64,000 bases of DNA, taken from Antedon mediterranea. Taxonomy: Eukaryota; Animalia; Echinodermata. The stretch covers positions 2,046,001 through 2,110,000 of the forward strand of contig NC_092674.1 in assembly GCF_964355755.1 (NCBI RefSeq), written 5' to 3'. The notes below the pieces were generated by a model. That model was not told where the DNA came from and did no database searches. It saw only the letters and a program-made list of their open reading frames with translations. Position 1 is the stretch's first letter, and every line of letters starts with the position of its first letter. Below, one piece after another: positions 11,745 to 37,800 of this stretch. The position numbers and the translations under genes were made by a program.

Positions 11745-14700
11745 TTAATCATCATCGTTGTCGTAACCACTCCCTGCTGAGTTATGCCGTAGAAGAAGTT
11801 CCATTTGATCCGAGACAATCTGAAAAGGAAGGTAAGCAGGTTAGAAAAAGAATAGAATAGACTGAATTGGGAATTGATGGGAGAGAAACAAGGGTGCTGG
11901 CTTGGCAATTAAAGGCGGTAGGAACAGGGATGCTGGATTGACAATTGATGGGAGAGAAACAAGGGTGCTGGCTTGGCAATTAAAGGCGGTAGGAACAGGG
12001 ATGCTGGATTGACAATTGATGGGAGAAACAAGGGTGCTGGCTTGGCAATTAAAGGCGGTAGGAACAGGGATGCTGGATTGACAATTGAATTGGCGTGGCT
12101 TATGATGGGGTTGTTGGCTTGAGAAATTTGAACAGGTATTGCGCAATTAACAAATTTACAGTTTACAATGCTACCGAGTGCATTAGCGTTAGTTTGGCCT
12201 GTCATTGGTCAAACTACTTATGTTACAAGTGAAAACAAAACTTCTAGCTTTTCTATTTCTAAAAACTAATACAGTCAACTTTCCCAATACCTTTGGGCTG
12301 GACTAATATGTCTGGTTTTCCAGAAAGTCTCATATTCGGAATGTGTTTTTAATGGTAAAAAGGAACTTGGGACCCTTTGGATCTCACGAAAAGACTGGTT
12401 TTGGGTGACTTCCAGGTTTCAGAGAGTCCGGCATTGGGAGAGTCGATTGTAGTGACAATGTCTCACCCCATTTTGCGTAGTTTCTTTACCGGCATACTCT
12501 TCATAAACAGTATCGTTTTCATGCTCATCTAATTTAGATAAGTGTACACCGTCACTGTCTTTACTCACGTTATAAATATAAATACAAATAAGTACAATCG
12601 GTGCTTGCAAGTAGAAATTCAGCGTGGGGTTGTAACCAAAATGAAATATCGAAAACGTTATCACCACAACTGTCATAACCTGAGTGCTTAGTATATGAAA
12701 CATATTGTCTTTAAATTTTAAAATTATTGACACAGTTAATCCAATAAACGCAATGTCAAAAATCAGAATCGACGAGAAGACGTTGTATCCGTCGAAGAAG
12801 CCACATTTCCAGACACGCTGTCTGTAATCGCTATGAGTTAGTAACGTAACAACGTTAAAGAACACGCCAAACATGTATAGTTTCGTATTCTGAAAAAATA
12901 TACTTTCTTGCAGTCCGCCATCTTGTTTGAATATTTTCTCGTTGTAGATGTTTGCGAACGAAGCAATAAAACAACTTACGATGATCAAAACGTGCCCTGT
13001 ATTAAATATTTTTATTTCCTTTTCGTTGGAATCCTTATGCTCAGTTGTTGAGATGTGTTTTGTTGGTAATAATTCATTTTTAATGTTTTTTTCATAACTG
13101 CATATAACTTTGTCAGATTTTGATGATGTATTCTTTTGTAAATAATTGACATCTTGTTGATGATGTATGCTTTCAGAACTATGACTGCTTTCATTTGACA
13201 AGGAAACAATTGCTAAAAATAAAATAATAATTGACGCCCACTGGACCTTGGTAAACTTCACTCTAAAATAAAAACATTAAAACTATTAAACAAATAGCAA
13301 AGAAAATGTATTCATAATTTCAAACTCTATTATAGCCAATACAATAGAAATCTTCTTTGGGCACCCTATTTACAGGACACCCATTTAGTTTGGAAACTTT
13401 GTTGGGTCTCAAAAGGGTGTCCCATCTCTACCGTATTTTACAAATATTCAGAAAAATATAAAAAATGATGTACTTACTTTAAAATAAATCGAAATAAAAT
13501 TGATGTTGAAATGATAACAAAGTTATTCAATAAAACTGCCACTGCCTGAGATGAATAAAATAAAAACATTTTATACAAAAAGAATATACATAAGAATGAT
13601 ATTGGGTTGATTTAATGATTTGTGTTTTTTTTTTCCATTTACTTTATTTTTGTCTCCATAAAAATACAATACAAAAAAAACACGAGTCCAGGCCGCCTCT
13701 AAAGTTCACAAATTGTAAAAGATAAGACATCAAATTAAGTTCAGCACTTCATTTTGCTACTTATAGACCCTGCCCCCCCCCCCCCCTCCCCCCATTTTCC
13801 AAAATCCTGTATCCACTATTGCATATAATTTCCGAGACAAATTGATGGAGTGTGAAATATCAAAGTAATAGATACACCTCATACAGTAACAGACAGTAAA
13901 TACACCTCATAATAGACAATACATTTCATACAGTAAATAGACAGATGCACCCCATGCAGTAACAGAAAGATATGCTAGTATTTTCTAATTGTAATCTTTG
14001 ATTGTTTTTACTTACCGGCTCCAAGTATGTTAGAGTATAGAATCCAATCAGATTGTCCAAAAAATACAGCAATCCTGGAATACTCCATTTTAGAAAATGT
14101 GCCGTACTGTGCGATGGCTTGCTGAATATTTCAGAAATCTGGCGTCCCTCTTTAAAATAAATATTCAGTCAATTTCTTATCTTTCTTCAAATACTATAGT
14201 ATTTACTATTTATTTATTTATTTTATTTATTAATACCATAAACCAGTGAATTGAAACACTAGCCACATTCACAAAAGATGTTATTATTTGTATTGTGATA
14301 TTGAATATCACGTTAGCAGACCAGGTAAAGGCTTAACAACAATGACCTTGAGTTGTAATTAGTGTATAGCAATTAAAAGCCAATTCTTTTGTTCATCAAT
14401 TTATTAAACATAACAACATCTGTTATCTGTTCTGAATTTAATTAGTGGACAGACTAGTATAGACAGAAATGTGACAATTAATAAAAATGTATTACAGTAT
14501 TAGGAAATACCTATTCAGGGAAATGCCTAGTAAGGGGATGCTTTCCCCTGACATGAATGAGGGAAAATATATTAAGCTCTGTCTACACTATCAAACTAGT
14601 TTGACAAAAAAAGTGTGATGTACCCAAATGTGGTAGTGATATCTTTATGTCCGTATATGGACACATCACATTTTTATTGTCGCATAATGTTTGATAGTGT

Positions 14701-15568: not shown

Positions 15569-17323
15569 GGATGCTAGTCAAGTCGCCCCATCGCAAAGTC
15601 GCCCCATACAAAGTCGCCCCTTACACAGTCGCCCCATCGCAAAGTCGCCCCGACACAGTCGCCCCATCACAAAGTTGCCCCATCGCAAAGTCGCCCCAAC
15701 GCAAAGTCGCCCCATCGCAAAGTCGCCCCATCACAAAGTCGCCCTATCGCAAAGTCGCCCCAAAACGTTAAAAAATAGTTTACAAGTGCGTAAAATGTCG
15801 CAATGATACACAAAATAACATGGAACGTGTAGGCATAAAAAGGGGAAGCCCCGCCATGTAGTCGATCTCAGGTCACACGATCGGCACGCACCACCATCCA
15901 GAGAGGAAGCCCCCGACTAATCACTCCGCGGTCGCACTAACGTGCTAGCTTACCAGAGGGAAACCCCCGTAATTACTCCGCCGTTGTCGCACTACAACGC
16001 ACCATAGATGGGGAAACCCCGCCGGAGTTTTACGATGATATCAGTCGCGTTCGAAATCGGTCGCGTTTAAATTTGGTCGCGATAAAATGATGTTATACGA
16101 TCTAGATTATATACATAGTATTACGTAATGAACATTGATTGTAAGCCTGGAAAGGCAATCCCATCATTATATCCATTATAAAATTGCATCATATCACCAC
16201 TATGTCGTAAATGATGACGTGCGTGTGTGTATTCGTCGTACGTCCGTGTACGTATTATTCCGTGCCTCTTCACGGTCTTGTTTAATTTAAAATTAAATAA
16301 ATACCCGATATGAGGATATTTATTAGGCATGATAATTAGAATGTTCTAGGCCTAACCAAAAGGGTTGAAAAGAATTTCTTCAGTAAAATGATCATTGTGC
16401 TGTTGAATAAAAGGCGACTCGCCATCTGAAACATTCTCTGAAACCAATCGGAACTGCGCCGTCTTTCTGCTGACCATCGGGGATTCCCCTTTTTAAAAAA
16501 CACGCACACGATACTGTACGATGGTTTTTCCATGGTCAAAATGTAGCGTTTTAATTTTACTAAAATACCTGCATGTAAAACAATCATATCGGCGATGAAA
16601 TCCTTTTTTTTAAATTTCTTTATTTTGAAAAGTCATTATAAAATTAAGACACATAACTTGTCAATAAATGCAAAATGATCAATAAGTAGCCTATAACACT
16701 CATTGTCTTACAACACTGTTATTGTTTTAACTACTGTAAATCTATAGGAAGGCCTAGGCTACTACACATTTATACATTTATTATATTATCCTAAAAAATT
16801 AGCTGGTATCCACGCGTAGGTTGAAGAAAGATTCGTAATTGTGGCTCTGGTAACTAATTTAAAAATCATATTAAATTAACATTTTCGAAACTATAAATCA
16901 GGGATAGGCCTAATCTTTTTAGAACTTTCAAACAAGGGACTATTTTTTTAATGATTTTTAATAAAAAGCACATCACTCCATTAAAACCTGTAAAATAAAA
17001 ATTAAAACACAAATTATGTATATAATAGGATAAACATTATACTGTATACGACATTTAGCGCGAGCAAAGTAACAACGCAATCGATATCAAACGCAACCAA
17101 TATGATTAAAACCGTGGGCGACTTTGCGATGGGGCGACTTTGCGTTGGGGCGACTTTGCGATGGGGCGAATTTGCGATTGGGCGACTTTGTAATGGGGCG
17201 ACTTTGCGATGGGGCGACTGTGCCGGGGCGACTTTGTTTTGGGGCGACTTTGCGATGGGGCGACTTTGTATTGGGCGACTTTGTATGGGGCGACTTTGCG
17301 ATGGGGCGACTTGACTGGATCCC
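15569..17323. mobile_element. Non-autonomous foldback/MULE-like DNA element with arrays of sub-terminal repeats, in SLC35A5 intron 1
   Basis: About 200-bp inverted ends made of ~17-18 bp AAAGTCGCCCCATCGC units; direct flanking duplication CCCACTAC at 15561-15568 and 17324-17331; no transposase ORF recognised inside. Confidence 0.88.
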
Positions 17324-17725
17324 CCCACTACCTAGTACTGGTGGTATGGTAAAATGTTTCTATTGGCCCCTCTCAATTCAACAGACCTGTCATACCTGTG
17401 TAACTCATAAAGGCCAGGCTAGAGCACGTTAGATCTACTTACTCGCCCTAGGCCCAGCTATACCTCCATGAGCTATCTATAGTAGGCCGCTAGCCTACTA
17501 CTAGACCTACTAGGCCTACTACCTAGCCTAGCTAGCCTAGCTAGGCCTACCTGCTTACTTTACTAGGCCTAGCTAGTTAGTGTATAGTATAAATTGTGCA
17601 CCACTTGTAGAGATCACACCCACTTTATTTACAAAACATATTTATTGTTACATACTCACAAATCCAGGTTCATTATTGGTTGGGTCTCCATATTGTGAAC
17701 CAAATCCTGCGACCCCCTCTGTCTG

Positions 17726-18738
17726 CGAGGTATAATCAGAGCGTCATTTTCGACGATCGAGCATTCTCTACTTCTACGGAGCGCCATTTATGCCTTTATT
17801 TACTTCCGAAATAGAAATAGTACTACGGTAACTGGTTCAGTGGACCAAATTTAGCACCAGTGGAGCACAATGATATAAAATAGAAATAAGTCACTAATTT
17901 TAATATCTTTTCGTATGTTAATACACTGTGCTCAAGTGGACCCAATTTTGAGCCAGTGGAGCACAGTGATCTAAAATAGAAATAAGTCGTCACTGAATTT
18001 TAATATCTTTTCCTTTGTTAATACACTGTGCTCAAGTGGACCCAACTTGGAGCCAGCGGAGCACAGTGATATAAAATAAAATTCAGTGACTTATTTCTAT
18101 TTTATATCACTGTGCTCCACTGGCTCCAAGTTGGGTCCACTTGAGCAGAGTGTATTAACATACGAAAATATATTAAAATTCCGTGAATTATTTCTATTTT
18201 ATATCACTGTGCTCGCCTGGTGCCAAATTGGGTCCACTTGAGCACAGTGTATTAAAATACGAAAAGATATTAACATTCAGTGACTTATTTCTATTTTATA
18301 TCAATGTGCTCTCTGGCTCCAAATAGGGTTCAATTGAGCAAAGTGTATTAAAATACGAAAAGATATTAAAATTCAGTGACTTATTTCTATTTTATATCAC
18401 TGTGCTCCCTGGCTCCAAATTGGGCCCACTTGAGCACAGTGTGTATTAACATACGAAACGATTATTAAAATTAGTGACTTATTTCTATTTTATATCACTG
18501 TGCTCCACTGGCTCCAAATTGGGTCCAATTAAGCAGAGTGTATTAACATACGAAAAGATATTAAAATTAGTGACTTATTTCTATTTTATATCACTGTGCT
18601 CCACTGGTGCTAAATTTGGTCCACTGAACCAGTTACCGTAGTACTATTTCTATTTCGGAAGTAAATAAAGGCATACATGGCGCTCCGTGAGAAGTAGAGA
18701 ATGCTCGATCGTCGAAATGACGCTCTGAATATACCTCG
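17726..18738. repeat. 1-kb palindrome / foldback structure with internal ~89-bp tandem units in both orientations
   Basis: CGAGGTATA.. at 17726 pairs with ..TATACCTCG at 18738. About 3 units run forward, then about 6 reverse, with the switch near 18075. Confidence 0.92.
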
Positions 18739-19263
18739 TCAATCTTAATAATTTTGAAGCGCCCTCTAGACAAAGTATAGTACTTTTGACGCTAAGCTGT
18801 CTGCACTATCATTATCAACTAATTTGACAAAAAAGTGTGATGTGCCCAAATAGGGTAGTGATATTCCCAAATATGGTAGTGATATTCCCAAATATTGTAG
18901 TGATATGACATCTTTATTTCCATATATGACCACATCACATTTTTTTATCACATAAAGTTCTGTTTGATAGTGTAGATAGAGCTAACTTATTTAATAGCAT
19001 TTACAACTTTGTTGAGTGAGGGATCTGAGATTTCTATATAAGAACATAACACTAGATAAGAAGTAAATGTATGAAAACATTTTATTCACTATACTTTTAA
19101 TACATAAGTAAAAACGTTGTTTATAATATATAATACACGTTAAAATGTATTTACAAACTGACTATAGATTTCAAAACCCGTAAAATGATGAATCATTTCT
19201 ATACTACTGGTGGTATACACCAGAAGATGACGTGGACTGATCTTAGGAGGAGAAATGAAAAAC

Positions 19264-22200
19264 TCAGTGTTTGGCTGAGCCTTTGATTTTCACCGTGAAG
19301 TTTATTCTACCCTCAGATCGCGAATGGTCAATGTTTGCCGCCCATGTGAAACAGACGATACGGATAGATACATTCTCCACCGGACTCATCATTTGGACGG
19401 TTACAAAAGAGTTGACAAGATCGTCTGATAAAAATCCCGCCGATGGTGTGACCACGACAGATCCAAGTATTCGTTTGTCAGCGTTTGTCTAGAAAAATAA
19501 TGAATACATATACTGTGACTTCATTTTCACGTATGGTCAAAGCTCTGTCTACACTATCAAACAAAAAAATGTGAAGTTCCCATATATGGGCATTATTATG
19601 TCATATCACTACCACATTTAATCATATCACTACCATATGTGGCCATATCACACCTTTTTTGTCAAACTAGTTTGATAGTGTGGACAGAGCTTAAATTTCC
19701 ATTTACCAATAGAGAGCAAAGTAAGACATAAAGCATTGTCAACAAAACTGTGATGTGCCCAAATATGGTAGTGATATGCCCAGATATGGTAGTGATATGA
19801 CATCATCATGCCCATATATGGGTATGAATTCAACACTATGATATCAATGGAAGTAATGGCTGTGTTCTTTTAAGCCACAAAAAGTGGTCTCTCTCTCTCG
19901 TTTTTCAATTATAAATACAGTTACCTTTCCCTCGCACGTTAGAGGCAGGTGAGAGTCAACGTAGACATCTTTAATCGTGGTTGGTATCAGCATTGGTAGG
20001 TATGGCAACGGTGCCCACTCCTTGGGGTTCTATATAGTTGAACATAGACATTATTATTATAAAAATAAAAGATACGTTATTATTTTAAAAATAAATAAAC
20101 TTGATAATCATTGACAACAATCAGCATTTATAACAAAAAGGCAACGATGATATTATAATCTGATGTATGATGATGATGATATTGATGATGATATTTAATA
20201 TTGATGGGGTCATGGGCTGATTATAACATACCTATAATGTTTAAGTTATATTATTAAAATGTATATATTATATTTTTGTTTTGAGTTTGTGTTGTGTCCG
20301 TTGGATATTGTGTTCTGCCAATTCAAACAAAGCAAACAGAATTTTTATTATTTTTTTCTTAAAACAAATGACAATAAATGACACTTGACTTGATAAGAAA
20401 ATAAACACACTCATTGTTGAACCTATTTTGAATTATATCAATTCCTCTGTACTTACTCCCGTAAAAGTAATTATAACGCATGGACAACCACTTGCATATC
20501 CAAATTTAGTAGCCGGATTACAGGTGGCGTGTGCACTAGAATCTGGCAAAAACATCGACAATGCGCGGACGTACTTCATGTAGGTCGACGGTACGGTAGG
20601 CTTGTATGATATCACCGCTTTATCTGGAATCAACTGAAGATCTATAGATTAGTAAAACAACTATTAGATACGTCATTGTTAAATTCACGCCATCTGATTG
20701 GTTTAAAGTTACAACTAATCCCTGCGTCTGTCTTTTATTGTAATCGTTTCTTTCTGCAGATTTCGATAACTCCGTGCTTAGACCCAGAGTTAACCAAGTC
20801 AATATTTGAATAAGGTATATCACTAAAGCTCTGTGTACACTATCAATCCTTTTGTGATAAAAGAAAATGCCCACATAACACGGACATGATGACGTCATAT
20901 CACTACCATATTTGGCCACATCACACTTTTTTTGTCAAACTACTTTGATAGTGTAGACCAAACTATACGGTAGCTATAGAAGTTTAATTCTAATCTTATT
21001 TTTTTCTTTCTTTTTTATTCATTTATTTTTTTTGTTCACGCACTTGGAGGGTCTACAAACTCTTGAGATGCTGCTGGAAGTCCACTGTCCTCGTCGATAT
21101 CAAACGGCCAAGCACCGAACGGAAGAGGTCCTGTCCCGCCATCTGGCCCGTCAGATCCATCCGTCATTGTTATGACGCCACGCGAGGAATTGAAGTTCAC
21201 CATGTATTCGGAAATGACAGGAGTTACACTGTGTTGCATTGGACGGTGTATAGCTGAAATGTACATTTGAAATAATTATCGTATAAAATACAAATGTATC
21301 ATTGTGTCCCCTGCCAAAACAATTCTTTAAAATAATTATTTTTTCTTTATGTCCCTTTCTAAATGTCTCAGATTAATCTTGCTGGCGACATGCGTAGTAC
21401 CGTAAATAACTAAGCGGTTCAATAAAAGGTGTAAGTTTCCCCATGTCGCATTGTATTTCTTGTACAGCTTTGTTTCACTAATGTCCAACCAAACCAGCTT
21501 GGTGTGTACTTGGACGCGACGCAATGCAACGCAAGGCACAATTGACCAGTTAGGATAATCCATAGGCGCGCGTCGTCGTGATTGGTCAAATTCCGTCATT
21601 GGGTTTCGTCCAATAGAAGCAAACTTTAGGCTTGGTTCCTACCCTGGCGCAACACAAGGACATAAGCGCAACGTAAATGATTCGACCAATCACAAGCGAT
21701 GGATTATTCGAAATGCCGCTTGTGTCATTGGTCAACTCGCTTGCGTTGCGTTTACGTACCTCCGCTACGTATCTGTGTGAACCAAGCCTTAGTGAGTGGC
21801 CCAATTCATAATCAATGCTGAGGCTTCGCGAACCACTACAGAGTAAGGCAAACATACTCACATGAAGTTATAGGTCCGTAACCTAAAAACATATAATGTG
21901 GTCGATACAGATTGAACGTCTTGTCGTTTTCAGGTATGTTCTTTTTTCTTGTAAATTTGCAAGATATATATCCATCAACATATGAAGAACTATGGACCAT
22001 CAAATTGTCCTTAAAGAAATCAACATGTGTAAGCATGAAATAGAAGTTATCGAAGTAATTTTGGATTCATCAAAACCGTTACAATTATTCTATACTGTAC
22101 ATTCAACATATTGTAGTTTTAGATACTCTAAAGACGATTTTCCACTAGGCGAATTTGTTCGCGCGAATCGAAACGTCAGCTTATATTACGCGTAGAGAGA

Positions 22201-25200
22201 GATTTTGAAGATGGAAAATTCGCCTAGTCTTCTTGTTGACTCTATAAGCCAAGCCTAGTGGGAAATCGGCTTGATGGCAAAATACTGGTATGGACTTACC
22301 GGACTGGTGATCTCCTCCATGTAATGTCGAGCGGAGTACGCCTGCTTTACATCCGTCCTTCCCTCTGTTTTCCCTCTAATACAAAAAACAACATCGTCTT
22401 CATTCTACAGATTACAAAGATGATCAATTACAAATCTTCATCGATAAACATATTGCAAATCATTAATTTACCTTTTCATATTCCTCACCATGACATCGTC
22501 AATGGAGCAGCCAAGCGGCAGCTTCGTAAAGCTAGGTTCGCATTGGACGGAACGCAATTATGTACGGTACGCGCAATTATTTGCGTTGTGCGTACGTCTT
22601 GCGTTGCTTGAACTAAAAAGTCGAAGTTACTCGAACTATAGAGTTTTAACGTATATTGTGAACAACACTAAAGCTCTGTCTACACTTTTAAACGTTATGT
22701 GCTCATGGGCATGATGATGCCATATCACTACAATATTTGAGAATATCACTATTATTGGGCACATAACACTTTTAGACAAAGCTTTAAAATGGTGTTTGAT
22801 ACTAACCATTTTTTTATCTTCAGAAAAGGCCAGTGCAATCCATCCATTTGATTTACCAGCTAACAGAAATGTAAGAGAGTCACCCGTCTTATTTTCCTTA
22901 ATTCGTACGCTAATATCGCATTTATTCCAATCACAATCATCAGGTACTTTTGCACACTGTTCGTATTTTCCACATTTGTTTAGTTTCAGAAAATCTGGTG
23001 GTTGAAAAGGGTCAGTACTACCTCCTTTGTCTAGTTTGTCAGTTTTTGGTTTTCCAGCTGGTTTTATGTCTGTTTCAGCATAAAGTACATGCTTTGCTAA
23101 AGATACTTTTCTTTTTGTAACCCTTTGAGGTCCTTGCATTAATGGCATGCCTACGAAATTAAAAAAAAACATAAAAACAGTAGGCACTAATAATTGTTAA
23201 CAACATTCAAGTCTAAGTATTAAGAGTTACAAGGTATAAGATAACAAAGTTAAGAACAAAAATGCCTATCTGTAACGTCAAAAATAAGCACAAACTTTGA
23301 GCAGGAACGCGTTCTAATGTTGATAAAAATCTTACGCCTTTTGTACGCGCGCGCCAACTTTGTGCGTCAATATAACAGTAACATCAGAATAATGTCAAAA
23401 GCATACCTTTCTTTAGAGCACCACTAGCAAAAATTAAATACCATTTTCGTTTCATGTTAAAATACTGAGGTACAGACTTTAATATCTTCTTTCTTGTAAA
23501 TACACAATGTATCATTTTGTTTTTACGGTCGTATGTTGCTTTTAATATCGTAGCTCCTTCAATCTGAATATGAAATAATTAATAATAATTACAATTCAAT
23601 TTTATATTTTAAAAAGATCTTCATTGATTGTATTGTTCATCTTAGCCTTGGTTGCGATGAGATATCATTTAAAGATGTATTGTGCCCCAAAAACATGAAA
23701 AATAAAGATAAAATAAGACTTTGAATAGATTATTTTGTAGATTTAATAAAGCTAATCACTTCGGTAGAAAAAAGGGAACAATTGAAAGTTTTCATCTATA
23801 AAATGAAAAAATAAATGATTAAATTCAACCAAAAAACCATTTGCTGGTAGCCAATTTGACTATTTTTTGCTTTAAATTACAGGTTTTCAGGTAAATACAT
23901 TTTTTCCATCCCATTTTTGGTCAAAGTGGATAAATATTATGTAACATTAAAATGGCATATTAAAAAAAAAATTATGAATGAATTATTTTTTTAGGGGGAC
24001 AATACATCTTCAATAAAGAAACAGGAACAAAAACGTGTACCGGTAGTGCAATTTTATTCTAATTAGTTGATACTGTATCATGCTAAATACAAATCGTAAA
24101 TTAACTATTACGAACTCTTGCCCGCGTTCAAGGTGCTGAAGTCAGATGTTTTGCCCAAATTTCACCCCGAGTATCCATACAATTACGTCATAATTAGGAA
24201 AACATCTGACTAATCAGCTACAATAAAATAATACAACAGGGAAGAGTAAAATTATACTCTTCCCTCCTGAAAATAACAAACCAAATCATCAACGTGTAAT
24301 CTTGAATATTCTCCATATATGTGTTTTACTTGCACTTTCGTTTCATTTAAGACACAGGCTACCATGTCATCACTGCCCTAGTGAAACAAAAATTAAAGGC
24401 TAGCTCCATGTATACCATTTTAAGCTCTGACTACACGATCAAACTAGTTTGATAAAAAAAAATGTGAGGTGCCCAAATATAGTAGTGATATACCCAAATA
24501 TGGCAGTGATATGACATCATCATGTCTATGGGCACATGACATTATTTGACACGTAAAGTTTTATGGTGTTGACAGACCTTTAGTTTTTATTAAACTTATT
24601 TTGTAACAACTTTATAATATTAACAATCCCACTTATTTTTTCTTCAGCGGTAAAAAGTAAAAAGATCATCGTAATAAAGCCTATAAAATAACTTTCCAAT
24701 GTGAGTGCAACCGACTTTTTCATATGTTATAAGAAGAATTGACTGTCACAACACTACACTATTGCATATTTATAAATAAAATATAAATATAAATCGAACG
24801 ATTGATTGATTGATTGATCAAACTTTTTGTGACAAAAAAAATATGAAGTGCCCAAATATGGTAGTGAGATGACGTCGTCACATACAATTCGATAGTGTAG
24901 ACAGAGCTTTAGGGAAAAGGTATATAAATCGAAAGAATTACAACCAATTTTACACAGAAGATCAGTAATATCTAAATTACAAATAGTACCCGGTTGTGGA
25001 TTGTAAGCAAAAATCAGTTTAAAGCATCATATAATTTAAACGTAACATAGACGTAAAACAAACCATTTCGTTTGTCCTAATCTCACCACAAATTTATCCT
25101 TTGATAAGCCTACAGCTACAAAGCCATCAGCGCTACCTCGTAGGTTGAATTTAAAAGATTTTTTATCACTGGTTTCTTTGACAGAGAGGGCATATCGACA

Positions 25201-25368
25201 GTTGCCGTCTTCTGGGTTACATTTGGCAGGTTGCAGATAACAAGCAGAACGGTAACAAAGTTTAGGTGTCGTCGTAGTAGACTTTAAATCGACCTTCGGG
25301 GAAACGTTTTGTCCCATACATCCGGATAGCCAAATCACGAGAACAATTAAAGAGCTTTTTGTAGGCAT
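19264..25368 (-). CDS. Secreted protein: signal peptide + 2 DOMON (FRRS1/SDR2-type) + Na,K-ATPase beta-like ectodomain, ~618 aa. Exons: 25368-25087, 24377-24282, 23563-23407, 23150-22807, 22404-22300, 22009-21862, 21253-21044, 20641-20457, 20029-19925, 19488-19264; upstream exon ends at 26640 with an in-frame ATG (26642)
   Basis: All nine introns are GT-AG with matching phases (0,0,1,0,0,1,1,0,0). DOMON motifs: ADGFVAVGLSKDKFVGSDDMVAC and SNGWIALAFSEDKKMNEDDVVFC, plus ISCKFTRKK. Beta-subunit motifs: DPPNLQLIPDKAVISYKP..TYMKYVRALSMFL, C....FGYASGCPCVII, LPLTCEGK, IRIVCFTWAANI....EGRINF. Confidence 0.85.
21629..21788. mobile_element. Harbinger-like MITE
   Basis: TTA|GGCTTGGTTC...GAACCAAGCC|TTA. 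Related fragments at ~21497, 22530 and 54480-54765. Confidence 0.7.
22132..22272. mobile_element. Short MITE-like inverted repeat
   Basis: agacgattttccactagg ... cctagtgggaaatcggct, an imperfect TIR pair. Confidence 0.55.
23673..24009. mobile_element. Kolobok-like MITE, copy 1
   Basis: TTAA|AGATGTATTGT..CCCC ... GGGGACAATACATCT|TCAA; interior homologous to the copies at 44039 and 56551. Confidence 0.75.
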
Positions 25369-27212
25369 CTTTGCCTAAAGAAAATATAAAACAATATCAA
25401 TATAAGTAAACAAAGTTAAATAAAATCAACTGGATTGGTTAGTGACAACGTTATGCATTTACTTGAATAAAAATGATAATTTATATATATATACTAGACA
25501 AAAAATATAAATAATACAATGCATTCCTTTAATTTCCCGATACTATATATTAAAAAATAATTACAGCTATATCTATTTTTAGTATTTATTTTATTCCTCT
25601 GTAATTGCTTTTGTATATATAAGTTATAGTGAGGCTTTCGAAACTATTGAACGAGTCTAATACACATTTCAACGATAGTTATATTACATAAACTCTGGTA
25701 CACTTCAAACCCTGCCACTCCCAATCAAAGGACGTGTTTTTAATCCTTAACATATGAAAAATGTGTTAAATTGTAGTTAACATGTCCAACTGGGAGCCAA
25801 CCTAGGCCAACTGTTAGGACCTACACCTGTTACCAGCTCCTACCACCCTCTAGAGTTTTCAGGCTGCTGGTTTTGACCTACAAACAAGGCAATGAACTTT
25901 AAGCCCACTTTAAGTGCAATACACCGAAATACGTGGCAATGTTATATTCATTAAGGTGTCAAACCATAAACACAATATATCCTCATGCTGCTATTAGTTG
26001 TTAATGACGTCATAGAGACACAAAGTTGACGCGCGCGTCAAATTCGTATTCTCATGCTGCTAATAGTTGTTAATGACGTCATAGAGACACAAATTTGACG
26101 CGCGCGTCAACGCGTACCATTTTCATCAGATTGAGCACGCCCGCGTTATATTTTATGACGTCATTGACAAGAGTAGTAGGAAACGATCAGTGTAAGAAGA
26201 TCCAAACTTGTGGACAAAACTCATCCATTAAACTGGACTGGAATAATTCCATTTTGGTCGCCAAAGAAAAAATAGCCGGGACCTCCGCGCTTGAATTATT
26301 CATATTATTAGACCAATAAGATGTAAAATTGATTAGACCCTAATGCTATTTAGTTTAGTAGCTCACCAAATTAGTGCAAAATACAGGACCTTATCTTAAA
26401 ACCAATTTATAATAATAGGGCCTACCATAATAATGATAGTCTATAGAACTGGAATTTAATTTCGCCAAAAGCATTCAAAATTATTATTAATTCATCTGAT
26501 TTCTTTAATATTATGTTTAAATAAATCAATATAAATTCGGTAAATAAGATTTCAAAATATAATTTATAAAAAAACCAACAAAAAAAACAATTCCAAATGT
26601 CTTAGGCCTATACTACCAACAGAAAGGCTAAAAACTTACCATCTGCTCCAAGTAAAGTCCCGATGCTACTCAAGAATATACCTCACACTGTCTGTTCGGA
26701 AATAGTCAATGTACTGTTAGCCTGCTAAATAAAAGACTTCAAACTACCAATTGGGATGATGTCCACTTCCGATTGGGCCACCGACTGTAGTTAAAACAAC
26801 ACTGTTATTCCAGACAAAACCCAATTAAGAATTCAACTGATACTTCACTGCTTTTATACACCAACACTTAGGCCTATGTATAGTTTTTCCAGAATTGCTG
26901 TATTGTTTGCCAATCCACCGCCAATCAGCGCTTGGTACTGTGTTTACTTCCACCAACAATGAATAACGTTTCTTCTGGTTTGGTATAAAGTGCGTGAATA
27001 GCCCTCCTCACGTCAAACTGATTTAAACTTTTATTATTTAAACGTTTAAACATATGTTTATATATTTAATCTCCTGAGATTTTGCTCTAACAACTGCAAG
27101 GCTTTCTCATCTTCGATAGTAGTTTAAGAACGATTAACTAAGCTTAATTTCAGGATCTTTTGAAAGATTGCCAATTGCAAAATAAATCAAATTTATTGTG
27201 AAATTGTTCGAT

Positions 27213-27677: not shown

Positions 27678-29273
27678 TTATGTAGAATCCTTATCAATTG
27701 CTTCATTTTCCTCCTTTTTCGTTGTTCTTTCTAGTAGTTGTATGTATTGTTTTCGACGCCTGTAACTGGAAATACAACGCCTGTGGACAAAAATGAATGA
27801 TTGTATTAGGCCTAAATCAACGCTCAGAGAGAGTGAAACAAATCGTTGACAACAGGGAGTATGTTATTGCTGTGTGGTTGAGTTATGCTGTGGGTGGGTG
27901 GTAGGGTTGGGTGGGTTGGGTTATGCTGTGGGTGGGTGGGTGGTAGGGTTGGGTGGGTTGGGTTATGCTGTGGGTGGGTGGTAGGGTTGGGTGGGTTGGG
28001 TTATGCTGTGGGTGGGTGGTAGGGTTGGGTGGGTTGGGTTATGCTGTGGGTGGGTGGTAGGGTTGGGTGGGTTGAGTTATGTTGTGGGTGGGTGGTAGGG
28101 TTGGGTGGGTTGGGTTTGAGAAACAACTGATGATAATTATGATCCAATTTTTGGTCAAAGTGAATAACATTTTTTTTTTGAGGGAGATAATAAATCGATT
28201 TGAATGAGCGGCTGCTGTATTTACCTGATCTGTGGTATCTTTAAGTAAAGACACACCAGTAGTATGAAGAGGGTTCCACCAACTGCAAGTTCCCACCAAA
28301 TCCAGTTGCAGTGCAACGCACCTATGTCTACCTTTGTTATTATTTTATTATCTAGGCCTAAATCATTGCAGCGCGGTATGATATCTTTACGTCCCTTAGG
28401 TGCCAATATCCCTTCATTTAATTTTATCCAATTGATAAACCAGACCAAGTCACAGTTGCATGTGAATGGGTTACTAAAAACTGATAACTTATTCAAATTG
28501 GGAAAATCTTGCAATCCGGCCGAGGGACCTATATTTGCTAGTAGATTGTCGTGGATATACAGTACTTCAATACTGGCACTTGACGCCTTAAAGAATCCAG
28601 GTGGAATGTACGTGATTTCATTGTTGAAAAGCGCTACAAGATTGAGTTTTGTATGTTTCTTGAATAGACCAGAAGGCAGAAACCGTATGTTGTTGTCGCC
28701 GAGATTAACCCACTTAAGATTCAAGTTATTGTCGAATAAATCTCCGTCGACGGATGTGATGTCACAGTGACGAAGAACGACGATAGTTAAGCTACGAAGC
28801 TCCTCAAACCAACGTTTATTTACCTTTTTTAAGGTATTATAACTTATACGTAAATATGAAAGTTCATCCAAGCCACTAAAAGCGGTATCGTCAATTCTAG
28901 ATTCCGTCAGTTCGTTGTTGATCAAGTCCAAAGAGATAATGGACAAATTCGAAAACCCGTATGCGTCCAACGTCGTTATAGCGTTGCTTCCAAGGTATAA
29001 GTTTTTGGTGTCAACTTGGAGTCGTGGCATCTTGTTCAGATCCTTTGAAGTGCAGTTTACATACCAACTACATTGATGGGAACATTGCAAATCATTTTCA
29101 CAAAAAGAACAAGAGCATTTAACCTCCTCAACACAATCTTTTATTATAAAATCGCAGTGAAAGTCGCAGCCATGACATTTCTTCTCATTGTTGGTACCAT
29201 GGGTAGTACTTACCAATGCACATAGGATTACTAGGCTTACAAATGTTGTCACAGACAAAACACGTAAGTACAT
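27678..29273 (-). CDS. Single-pass leucine-rich-repeat receptor without TIR domain, ~383 aa. Exons: 29273-28225, 27780-27678
   Basis: Signal peptide; Cys-rich N-cap; ~8 LxxLxLxxN repeats; LRRCT NPFTCNCDLVWF; TM WIWWELAVGGTLFILLVCLYL. Phase-2 splice AG|GTAAAT..CAG|G adds the tail RRCISSYRRRKQYIQLLERTTKKEENEAIDKDST*. Confidence 0.88.
27883..28115 (+). repeat. 38-bp G-rich minisatellite x6 in the LRR-gene intron
   Basis: Unit ttatgctgtgggtgggtggtagggttgggtgggttggg at 27883, 27921, 27963, 28001, 28039, 28077. Confidence 0.95.
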
Positions 29274-30356
29274 TTTTGACCGATCATAGAGATATTATAG
29301 AATATATTGCAGTAAACTGATGTATTTCCTTCTTTCAATCGGAACCGACAAAACGAAAACGAGAGTGGCATATTGACATTTCCTATGACGCCTCTAATAG
29401 CAAACATCTCCATGATGATAGCTTCATGAAAAAAAAATGTACCGCGATTTTTAAACAACGAAAAAACAAAAACAATACAAACCGAAAAATTGTAAGGTCT
29501 AATTTTTTTTGTCTAGTCAAGTTTATATTCCTACCGATTACCATGCATCATATCTCATCCCTTCCCTTCCCTACTTCCCACTCTCCTCTCCCAATTCTCC
29601 TCCTCCCCAACCACCTATTCTACTGTCTATAACTTGATCTCTCTCCAAAGCAAGGAAGGAATTTTCTGTCTGCCACCACCAATGTTTGAGATATAAAAAA
29701 ATCCAGTTAATAAACTCACACCCTATTTACAACATGCGAGATATTATTAATCCAGAGGGAGTAAAGACATTTAATACATTTTCTCATAACATTGGCCTGA
29801 ACTCTGTCTCAAAACCGGGGACACGGTGTGAGGCTTGGCCGTTCAGTCAGATAGATAGGCCTACAGACTTGGACGTAAATTCCTCGAAAAGTAAAGTAAT
29901 TGAAACCTATTGTAAAAAAAACAACTCGGGAACAGCCATCATGTTATTGTAAGTATGTTTTGAAGACAAAAAATAGCTTTTTAGTTTATAATAATTACGT
30001 TTTGTTTGTAAGATTCTTGGGTGGGAGAACGAATGAGAGGTGTGCTATCAACTCCCACCACACACCGACGGTGGAAGAGAGACGATTAGCCGCTAGTATT
30101 TTACTTCCGGTAGTTATCAAGTCGGGCTTACAGATGTATACTGCTCAAGTGAATTAACATTATCCTCGAGTACACTATGCTCTTGGTTTATTATGCTGTA
30201 TCCTATATAGGTTCTATCTACCGTCATTACAGTTACTTCAATATGTTATGTATCTTGAACAATATGAATTATTTATTTATTTTAGGCTTAAACTATTGAC
30301 TAATAAAAGCTACTGCCATGATGTGTTATTGTTTACTACTGTACGTATTTAATGTT

Positions 30357-34800: not shown

Positions 34801-37800
34801 AGAATTTATTTAATAGTAACTGTCAACTGTACTGAACAAAATAGGAGGTTTTCAATATATACTGTGATACAATCAATAATTACTAAAGATTGAAATATTA
34901 GAAGTATCCAATAACTCAAGTTCTTTGCTTTCTAGAGATGAGCTTTATAAATTATATTATACAAATTTGTAAGCGCTGTACAAAATAGGATGTTTGCAAT
35001 ATACTGTTGTACTGTACAATCAATAACATTAAAGATTGAAATATTAGAAGTACCCAATACCTCAAGTTCTTTGCTTTCTACAGATGAGCTTTATATTAAT
35101 ACAAATCAATATAAGTTTTCATTATGATGACCGGGACATGTTTCATATTACATAAAACTTAATCATGAACCTGAATTTTTAGAGTGCTGTATCTTGGTTT
35201 AATTGAGATGTTGAAGAAACAGATGCATACTTAGTTTAATTTGATTGAGTTTAAATCAAAAGATTAAATATCAGTGTTGAATAAATTAAGGAGCGACTAT
35301 AATGGTATTAGCTGACATGATAAACTGAGCAAAACCATTACAAAAATATATAGATTTTATGTTTTTAGTTAATTTTCTTTTTTTTATAAGAAAGTTTAAG
35401 TTACATTCATCATCAAGTTTTTATGTAACTTCAAATAATTTTAATTAAAAACAGTTTTAATTTTGTTACCAAACACACATACTCACTGTATGTGGGATGG
35501 TCTCACAGACGACTCCATTATCGGATAGGTGTGCTTAACTGAATTCCTTATTTTTCGTAAATGTATCCTCTCTTTAAAAAGCCAGGACTATTGTTGGTTT
35601 ATCCGGGTAAGCAACAACCATAGACTAAAGCAGGTTTTGTTTAAGTGTTACATTAATCATTGTACATAAGTAACCATGCCACATTAATTTCTATTTGCTA
35701 AGCCATAAGAATTTATATGTACATAAATTTCTAAAAAATCTTCTTCTTAACGTTTTCCGTCTTCTGCCATTACGCTTTCCACAATTTGTTTCTATTTTTA
35801 AATTTTCAAATTAATATATAAATTAACTTGTCATTGTTGGTAGTTGGCAAATAATTTTTTCTTTTAGTTAATTCCGTAAAATTGCATTCCTCGGAATATT
35901 TTCGTTTGTGCCATTAAGATGACTAATGTTGTGTTTGGGGATTACTTAAGCGTTGGGAATGTCTCGCTCCCGTTAATACATTCGGCATTTTGCGCATAAA
36001 TTTTGCATAATTACTCTTCAAGATTGTACATTAAACTTGAAATTGCATTATAAGACAAGCGTCACATTTAAGTGGTGTTCTAAGATGCTTTATTTATAGG
36101 AATAATAATAAAGAACTAACGCAGTTGTAATAGAATACAATGTCTAGTGAAAACACTGTCGGGCTAGCCAACATATTTTACTTTGTTGGCTAGTGACAAT
36201 TTAGTATCATTGTGGCTATTTTTAAGACAAACTGTCAAAATCTAGATAATAATAATATATAATATAATTGTTTTAATTCAGACAGGCAGACCGTAACATC
36301 TTTTTTCCTAGCAAACAGGTTAATTACTTTCACTTACTTAATATAGTTTGTTTTTCTGTGACATCAGATCAATGATAAATTGTTATCACATTGTTGTCAT
36401 ATTGTATTGATGCAGTAATTAAAATCTTGACAAGCACATACTATAATGAACAAGCATTGAATAATGTAGAACAACGAACATTGAATAGAACTACAAACAT
36501 TGAATAGAACTACAAACATTGAATAGAACTACAAACATTGAATAGAACTACAAACATTGAATAGAACTACAAACATTGAATAGAACTACAAACATTGAAT
36601 AGAACTACAAACATTGAATAGAACTACAAACATTAAATAGAACTACAAACATTGAATAAAACTACAAACATTGAATAAAACTACAAACATTGAATAGAAC
36701 TACAAACATTGAATAGAACTACAAACATTGAATAGAACTACAAACATTGAATAAAACTACAAACATTGAATAAAACTACAAACATTGAATAAAACTACAA
36801 ACATTGAATAAAACTACAAACATTGAATAGAACTACAAACATTGAATAGAACTACAAACATTGAATAGAACTACAAACATTGAATAGAACTACAAACATT
36901 AAATAGAACTACAAAAATTGAATAGAACTACAAACATTAAATAGAACTACAAACAATAAATAGAACTACAAACATTAAATAGAACTACAAACATTGAATA
37001 GAACTACAAACATTGAATAAAACTACAAACATTAAATAGAACTACAAACATTAAATAGAACTACAAACATTGAATAAAACTACAAACATTGAATAGAACT
37101 ACAAACCTCCAGTAGGACAAAAAACATTTAATAGAAGAACAACTGAATAGCATAACAAACATTGAATACTGTAGAACAATAAATGTTACATTCTATAGAA
37201 ACATTTTTTATGTCGTAAAAGTCAAAATTATAAATCATGTTTTTCATGTGCAAAATTTTAATGTGCTCTGTGCCGTTGTTCATTTATAGAACAATTAGTA
37301 ATAGGTTTAATTGATAAAACATGAATATATTCAATAGATAGAAAAGATGTATAAACTGCAGAAATGTCAGGAGATTAATACATTCATGTTTAAAGTTCAG
37401 CGTTGTAATGTTCTCCGTGTCATTAGAGGACAGTAATTAATAATAATTTTCCTTGAAATAGTGCGATGGAACATCTCTGCATAGAAGCTGTGTGAAATAT
37501 TAAAGCTATGTATATCATATTTTAATGTGCAACTTTGTAATGTGCTCTCGTTGTCTGTCGGGTATTTATACGGATCAGTTACAAATATAAATTAATTTAT
37601 TAATGCACAAAGCCTAGGATGACAAATTCCATTAATTTCTTGCATCTCTTAAGCTCTGTTAAAGAGCGTCACGTATTGCTTTCGTTCAGCAGCGTGTGAA
37701 CTGCTTGCGCCATCTACAAATTTAACACGTATTGTTGTTAATTCTTCTCCCTATCGTCACCAGTGCTTTTTAGAAGTTGATTATTTAAAAGGTTTCAAGG

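Follow-up and report, generated by a model that had tools for sequence, protein, structure and literature searches.

The β subunits of the Na,K- and H,K-ATPases are usually viewed as obligate membrane partners of the pump, with adhesion as a secondary role, and a proline in their FPY loop takes part in α-β assembly. A β1 ectodomain in soluble form keeps both its fold and its adhesiveness and forms dimers by way of its C-terminal half, trans dimers of β1 use residues 198-207 and 221-229, and the main contacts with the α subunit are made by Tyr69-Tyr83 and Asn182-Ile185 (PMC6770782); β1 and β2 use different adhesion surfaces (PMC12040271). The haem motif described for DOMON domains, SxDxxMGxD, includes the haem methionine and is followed in CG8399 by a histidine 93 residues later (PMC10691727). 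Here we describe a minus-strand gene at positions 19264-25368 of a 64,000-nucleotide stretch of the genome of the feather star Antedon mediterranea (contig NC_092674.1, positions 2,046,001 to 2,110,000; hereafter "the window"), whose predicted product joins two DOMON domains to a β-subunit ectodomain without its membrane anchor, and which is shared with a second crinoid, Anneissia japonica.

In the whole Antedon protein (RefSeq XP_071949616.1, P0001), Pfam recognises DOMON (PF03351) in two stretches with 117.1 bits against a cut-off of 32.7 (E 7e-34) and Na_K-ATPase (PF00287) with 35.2 bits against a cut-off of 23.3, which bears out the domain content that an earlier, sequence-only reading of the locus had expected. 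Both DOMON matches and the Na_K-ATPase match are also found in the Anneissia ortholog (XP_033117858.1, P0002, locus LOC117117609), and both proteins are named "uncharacterized". Single exons matched DOMON in four cases out of ten and Na_K-ATPase in two when searched with Pfam, and the proteins returned by single-exon searches were P0001 and P0002. No further domain, and no cytochrome b561, was found in P0001 by Pfam scan at E≤1. Compared with the PDB, a two-sequence profile of the C-terminal part reaches β1 chains at E 5e-13, and the β motifs named in the earlier reading align in order with bovine and shark β1; with TIGR01107 the protein scores 32 bits against a cut-off of 189. An AlphaFold2 model built on a 68-row alignment has a predicted local distance difference test score (pLDDT) mostly above 90 over residues 451-620 and a low one for most of the DOMON part. 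With the C-terminal model, Foldseek gave 39 matches at E≤0.001, and among the matches listed all are Na,K-/H,K-ATPase (P2C) β chains; VIA-align superposes it on β subunits with Z 18.5 and a root-mean-square deviation of 2.1-2.3 Å over 170-171 residues (next fold Z 6.8), model residues 446-617 lying on shark β 72-305 and matching the Ig-like β-sandwich fold of the ectodomain.

The ten exons proposed earlier splice into one frame of 618 residues with one terminal stop, and this model held in full: all nine introns are GT-AG, 256-718 nucleotides long and consistent in phase, and XP_071949616.1 equals it at 618/618 residues. The RefSeq protein has three extra N-terminal residues, for which splicing from an upstream ATG exon to an acceptor at 25375 accounts; the sole ATG|GTRAG donor between 25379 and 30000 lies at 26640, and the resulting 11-exon join reproduces P0001 letter for letter. 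The gene therefore probably runs past 19264-25368 into an upstream exon at 26640. As this distal exon supplies just the start codon, the RefSeq model XP_071949616.1 is suggested to rest on transcripts. The features are listed below in the order of transcription; the ten-exon model takes 25368-25087 as its first exon and the nine exons that follow as given.

26640-26642, minus: ATG at the 3' end of the likely upstream exon; sole ATG|GTRAG donor, join equal to P0001
25374-25087, minus: exon with the likely signal peptide (residues 1-22) and the start of DOMON1; ATG of the ten-exon model at 25368
24377-24282, minus: exon with the middle of DOMON1 (Pfam and spliced frame)
23563-23407, minus: exon with the C-terminal strands of DOMON1 (Pfam DOMON positions 82-124)
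23150-22807, minus: exon with the end of DOMON1, a spacer and the Cys-rich start of DOMON2; Met296 at 22809-22807
22404-22300, minus: exon with the middle of DOMON2 (Pfam and spliced frame)
22009-21862, minus: exon with the C-terminal strands of DOMON2 (Pfam DOMON positions 79-124, E 2e-4)
21253-21044, minus: junction exon with the end of DOMON2 including His388 (21233-21231), the linker (21167-21069) and β-like residues 443-450
20641-20457, minus: β exon with the first strands, the helix and the pair Cys491 and Cys505; a deletion within it has removed the first-disulfide segment
20029-19925, minus: β exon with Trp517, Pro519 and Cys544
19488-19264, minus: last exon with the C-terminal β strands, Cys593 and the stop; the FPY loop is deleted within it
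19086-19081, minus: AATAAA, a weak candidate poly(A) signal about 180 nucleotides past the stop (in the window, the minus strand has 2.3 such hexamers per kb)

At its N-terminus the protein has a basic n-region, a short hydrophobic core and a Cys-x-Gly|Gln site common to both crinoids, with cleavage predicted at Gly22|Gln23 and the Gly|Gln site retained in the Anneissia ortholog; judged from hydropathy and inspection by eye, it is likely secreted by way of this peptide. The highest 19-residue Kyte-Doolittle mean, 1.34, falls inside the signal peptide, and a tail-helix-stalk profile made from 50 anchored relatives has no match on P0001 or P0002, in agreement with the earlier statement that no transmembrane segment follows. 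Of 11 held-out proteins, ten reached 20-70 bits with the same profile, and the eleventh, P0027, resembles a shortened model of the P0126 locus. Hydrophobic open stretches occur in several introns, but a hidden helix exon was rejected because the two introns before the β exons (20641-21862) gave no match to the profile on the minus strand; within the window, then, we found no separate exon encoding a transmembrane segment for the β part.

What the β part has kept and lost was counted among 113 relatives, taking for each site the rows that span it; these relatives are the 115 hits of a search of 1.84 billion representatives, minus P0002 and P0104, a false hit consisting of bacterial Ig repeats that was left out of all counts. 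The core is kept, together with two disulfide pairs, Cys491/505 and Cys544/593, whose four cysteines are present in 108/108, 110/111, 112/113 and 110/110 relatives. At 16 of 22 ectodomain positions (profile column 143 on, at least 80% conserved in 50 anchored relatives) the conserved residue is retained, and residues 443-452 also align with the β stalk. Both crinoids have lost the first disulfide pair by deletion, so that two of the three ectodomain disulfides remain, the two missing cysteines being present in 98/104 and 99/106 relatives; also lost in both are the FPY-loop proline (108/113 relatives) and the proline that follows (109/110). Missed exons were rejected as the source of the two deletions, which both fall inside single exons. 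The sequence-only reading was right about the family origin of this domain and the order of its motifs, but it had left the two internal deletions unnoted. The residue numbers of PMC6770782 fit the shark chain, and on them the first α-contact segment is partly kept and the second replaced in the crinoids, neither of which has the Asn equivalent to shark Asn182. By its sequence the β part is homologous to pump β subunits, but with tail, helix, first-disulfide segment, FPY loop and α-contact Asn lost it is predicted to be no functional pump subunit. The Antedon β domain also has an extra Cys503 (20484-20486, minus), possibly unpaired, which is Asp in Anneissia.

The two crinoid proteins are 70% identical in DOMON1, 62% in the C-terminal part of DOMON2 and 66% in the β part (74% over the last exon), as against 11% (3/28) in the linker; conservation of both halves alike marks the predicted fusion as one gene under selection. 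The junction exon (21253-21044) carries the end of DOMON2, a variable acidic Gly/Pro linker and β-like residues through Pro450, and the breakpoint between DOMON and β therefore lies within an exon. Exon shuffling, put forward as the origin of the fusion, accordingly stands in part: the join is at about the place of the helix, as the span of the structural alignment indicates, but a breakpoint inside an exon is not a clean intron-bounded shuffle. A phase-1 intron in residue 451 and a phase-0 intron after Lys547 presumably match introns of human ATP1B1 (at Gly76 and Lys216, on the exon sizes that we assume for that gene). Such a match would be in keeping with an origin from a duplicated β gene in which the helix exon was lost by decay or replacement. 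For the DOMON half, three intron positions and phases (0, 0, 1) are shared between DOMON1 and DOMON2, which points to their origin by tandem duplication.

In DOMON2, Met296 and His388 lie 92 residues apart, and SxDxxMGxD fits at all fixed positions except Gly, which is replaced by Asn. DOMON1 has Val97 (Leu in Anneissia) at the Met position and Gln187 (His in Anneissia) at the His position. The earlier description spoke of a haem/redox or ligand-binding domain; of the two DOMON domains, only DOMON2 keeps both candidate haem ligands, and DOMON1 keeps neither in Antedon. No solved DOMON structure was matched by sequence search.

A profile search of the 1.84 billion representatives gave a high score to the P0002 cluster alone (387 bits; next 76), and in a word-based search of proteins of 341-1087 residues the DOMON-β fusion was seen in the two crinoids only, among 226 candidates; fusions that have diverged further may have escaped searches of this sensitivity. 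No DOMON was found when 42 of the 113 relatives, among them every one of the 17 with at least 331 residues, were scanned with Pfam. Inspection by eye, however, singled out 20 relatives (19 of them hits, the other a cluster member) in which a short hydrophobic N-terminus precedes a C-terminal β ectodomain without a tail-helix-stalk match. The DOMON-β combination was seen in two crinoids only, but anchor-less β ectodomains are predicted in other invertebrates as well. This signal-peptide-type set comprises P0003, P0023, P0034, P0056, P0069, P0081 and 14 more, from hemichordates, a millipede, an annelid, a clam, flies and a crinoid; they are predictions in databases, with no description in the literature searched, several are auto-named there as pump subunits, and some may be truncated models or signal anchors. 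Among anchor-less forms are:

Anneissia XP_033114003.1 (LOC117114442; P0081/P0124): Kazal-Kazal-β, a second crinoid fusion, FPY loop kept
Owenia CAH1782013.1: collagen-β
Ptychodera XP_070539165.1 and Glandiceps XP_077987584.1: anchor-less β ectodomain with a likely coiled coil (by eye)
Chamberlinius GAB6030011.1, Culicoides XP_063695879.1, Bradysia XP_037035084.1 and Ruditapes XP_060603241.1: signal-peptide-type β ectodomains

A tree was made from 74 rows and 143 columns, a short alignment on which the free quick search fell short of the optimum by at least 26 log units. In it the two crinoid sequences share a long stem and belong to an unresolved group of 12 rows that also contains the Kazal form and hemichordate βs. 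A single origin of all 22 anchor-less rows is rejected (approximately unbiased test, p-AU 1e-43); the topology test rejects neither the grouping of the DOMON form with the Kazal form (p 0.82) nor one that includes the hemichordate forms too (p 0.80). A further β-like sequence, P0019, has six near-identical copies of the second-disulfide segment and is probably an assembly or model artefact. The full-text literature searched, with most subscription papers outside its scope, held no description of a DOMON-β fusion or of secreted β-like proteins, in line with the earlier remark that no described protein of this architecture was known. The Drosophila β-like genes CG11703 and CG5250 are listed as candidate subunits (PMC522876).

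We consider it slightly more probable than not that the protein is a secreted adaptor, in which the β sandwich acts as a pump-independent binding module and positions a predicted haem-type DOMON2 at a surface or in a matrix. On this account, a β gene would have been duplicated and its tail and helix replaced by a DOMON module, itself duplicated in tandem; the N-terminal peptide would direct secretion of the DOMON-DOMON-β protein, and its β domain would not assemble with an α subunit. A b-type haem would be held by Met296/His388 in DOMON2, with DOMON1 as a non-haem spacer or ligand-binding unit; because the chain has no cytochrome b561, DOMON2 would need a separate redox partner, or might simply hold haem or metal. 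The β sandwich would bind a protein, be it its own copy, another secreted β-type protein or a membrane β subunit, and the C-terminal half used for dimerisation in PMC6770782 is the half retained in the crinoid protein. Docking on membrane β subunits, as the earlier reading proposed, may be one, putative, version of the adaptor. A bolder and rather improbable extension is that the β ectodomain is a mobile secreted adhesion module, which invertebrates have freed from the pump several times in DOMON, Kazal, collagen, coiled-coil-like or bare forms, and that the crinoid form docks a haem domain on pump-bearing cells through β-β contacts, as a natural soluble ligand of the adhesion face of the pump.

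Several observations weigh against the adaptor. In the Anneissia model, 105 residues of the long exon (22807-23150) are missing, Met296 among them, so that Met296 is seen in one species only, whereas His388 is present in both crinoids; because a GT occurs at the matching place in Antedon, after 23122, the gap may come from an alternative donor or from an error in the model. P0001 and P0002 are both models predicted by NCBI, and the same bias of prediction could affect the two. Confidence in DOMON2 was low in both structure runs (single-sequence folding, pLDDT 31, and AlphaFold2), and the haem geometry is accordingly putative; as for the C-terminal domain, its predicted fold is compatible with the β family, but the model was built on a β alignment, and its match is thus not independent proof beside the sequence match. 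The Asn equivalent to shark Asn182 is found in 39/46 anchored and 4/20 signal-peptide-type relatives (Fisher p 8e-7), a count over related, non-independent sequences, 20 of them picked by eye. Deletion of the first disulfide is not, by itself, to be read as a sign of lost pump assembly, since its cysteines are also absent from the helix-bearing relatives P0011, P0105 and P0006, few as such cases are. Counterparts of the trans-dimer segments 198-207 and 221-229 are present in the crinoid with few identical residues, and since β1 and β2 differ in their adhesion surfaces (PMC12040271), adhesion cannot be read from sequence.

Of the competing explanations, the one to be taken most seriously, if still as an outside chance, is a secreted structural matrix protein, in which the DOMON domains would bind carbohydrate or matrix polymers and the β domain would serve for oligomerisation or as a spacer, in cuticle, ligament or the matrix of the skeleton. 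It would account for DOMON1 being the best conserved part (70%) although the Met is absent from it in both species and the His in Antedon, and for its basic character in Antedon (34 K+R, 15 D+E), but DOMON1 is less basic in Anneissia (25 against 19), and in DOMON2 the haem positions are still occupied by Met296 and His388, the latter in both species. Consistent with a matrix role are also the missing cytochrome b561 partner in the chain, the DOMON domains that bind sugar or neither ligand (PMC10691727) and the one DOMON protein listed in a brachiopod shell proteome (PMC4453069); against it, the paper on the genome and skeleton proteome of a feather star (PMC7351957) has no DOMON or β term in its four text supplements, which possibly do not include the full list of 280 proteins.

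Much less probable is that the locus holds two transcription units, or a minor read-through, with the DOMON exons ending at an intronic poly(A) site past 21044 and the β exons being a relic joined by prediction. Read-through of the junction exon does stop within three codons, AATAAA follows at 21027 and 21019, and the donor of this exon (GTGCGT) is off consensus. Yet AATAAA is common on this strand, at the density given above, the β exons, which are open and 66% identical to the ortholog, lack a start, a signal peptide and a helix exon that would make them a separate unit, and β similarity starts before the intron, in the junction exon, with the same join in two genera; a DOMON-only side isoform may exist besides the fusion. 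We give equally little credence to a soluble modulator of the pump, whose β domain would bind the extracellular loops of the α subunit and compete with, or cap, the true β subunit. Two prolines, a leucine and a later proline do align in the first α-contact segment (shark 69-83, PMC6770782), but both species have other residues in the second (shark 182-185) and have lost the FPY loop by deletion, and a protein without a helix cannot make the helix contacts that PMC4742777 describes.

Elsewhere in the window, just upstream of the gene, an open frame of 357 residues (28221-29294, minus) contains leucine-rich repeats and ends in a hydrophobic C-terminal stretch, with no TIR match in the three frames scanned downstream of it, and at 12419-13276 (minus) a large exon encodes part of a nucleotide-sugar transporter (PF04142, E 6e-28). 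Downstream of the gene, at 17776-18688, tandem units of about 97 nucleotides form a large inverted repeat whose 213-nucleotide arms are 97% complementary, similar to a foldback element or a miniature inverted-repeat transposable element. A short dispersed repeat family occupies, in both orientations, four introns of the gene and its 3' flank (18828-18946, 19563-19822, 20879-20958, 22691-22756, 24437-24543 and 24816-24880). There are also a minisatellite of 16-nucleotide units at 17099-17326 and, at about 36500-37100, a 19-nucleotide periodic array recognised from evenly spaced frames.

Seen against the systems outlined at the beginning, the crinoid gene combines known domains in a new way and belongs to a class that has apparently been overlooked. 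The signal-peptide-type set suggests that this is a mis-annotated extracellular class present in insects, myriapods, molluscs, annelids, hemichordates and crinoids, of which the DOMON form is limited, as far as seen, to two feather stars. A natural, conserved, anchor-less β that has lost α-contact features makes visible what the fold requires when it works apart from the pump, and offers a test of whether the adhesion role of β can stand alone.

With the Na,K-/H,K-ATPase β subunits (ATP1B1, AMOG/β2 and nervana; PF00287) the crinoid protein shares sequence, predicted fold and two disulfide pairs, but in place of their tail and helix it has a signal-peptide-like segment and two DOMON domains. 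The engineered sec-β1 is likewise an anchor-less ectodomain, which folds alone and is reported to be adhesive (PMC6770782); unlike this laboratory construct, the crinoid form is a natural gene with extra domains and deletions. From CYBDOM, SDR2 (FRRS1) and CG8399, as described in PMC10691727, it differs in having no cytochrome b561, reeler domain or membrane anchor, and no Met in DOMON1, whereas its DOMON2 shares with them the SxDxxM motif and a His at the matching spacing. The signal-peptide-type β proteins resemble it in their hydrophobic N-terminus, their C-terminal β ectodomain and their tail-helix-stalk scores of at most 3.5 bits; in contrast to it, they carry no DOMON, and most keep the FPY loop (aromatic-Pro pair in 18/20) and the first disulfide.

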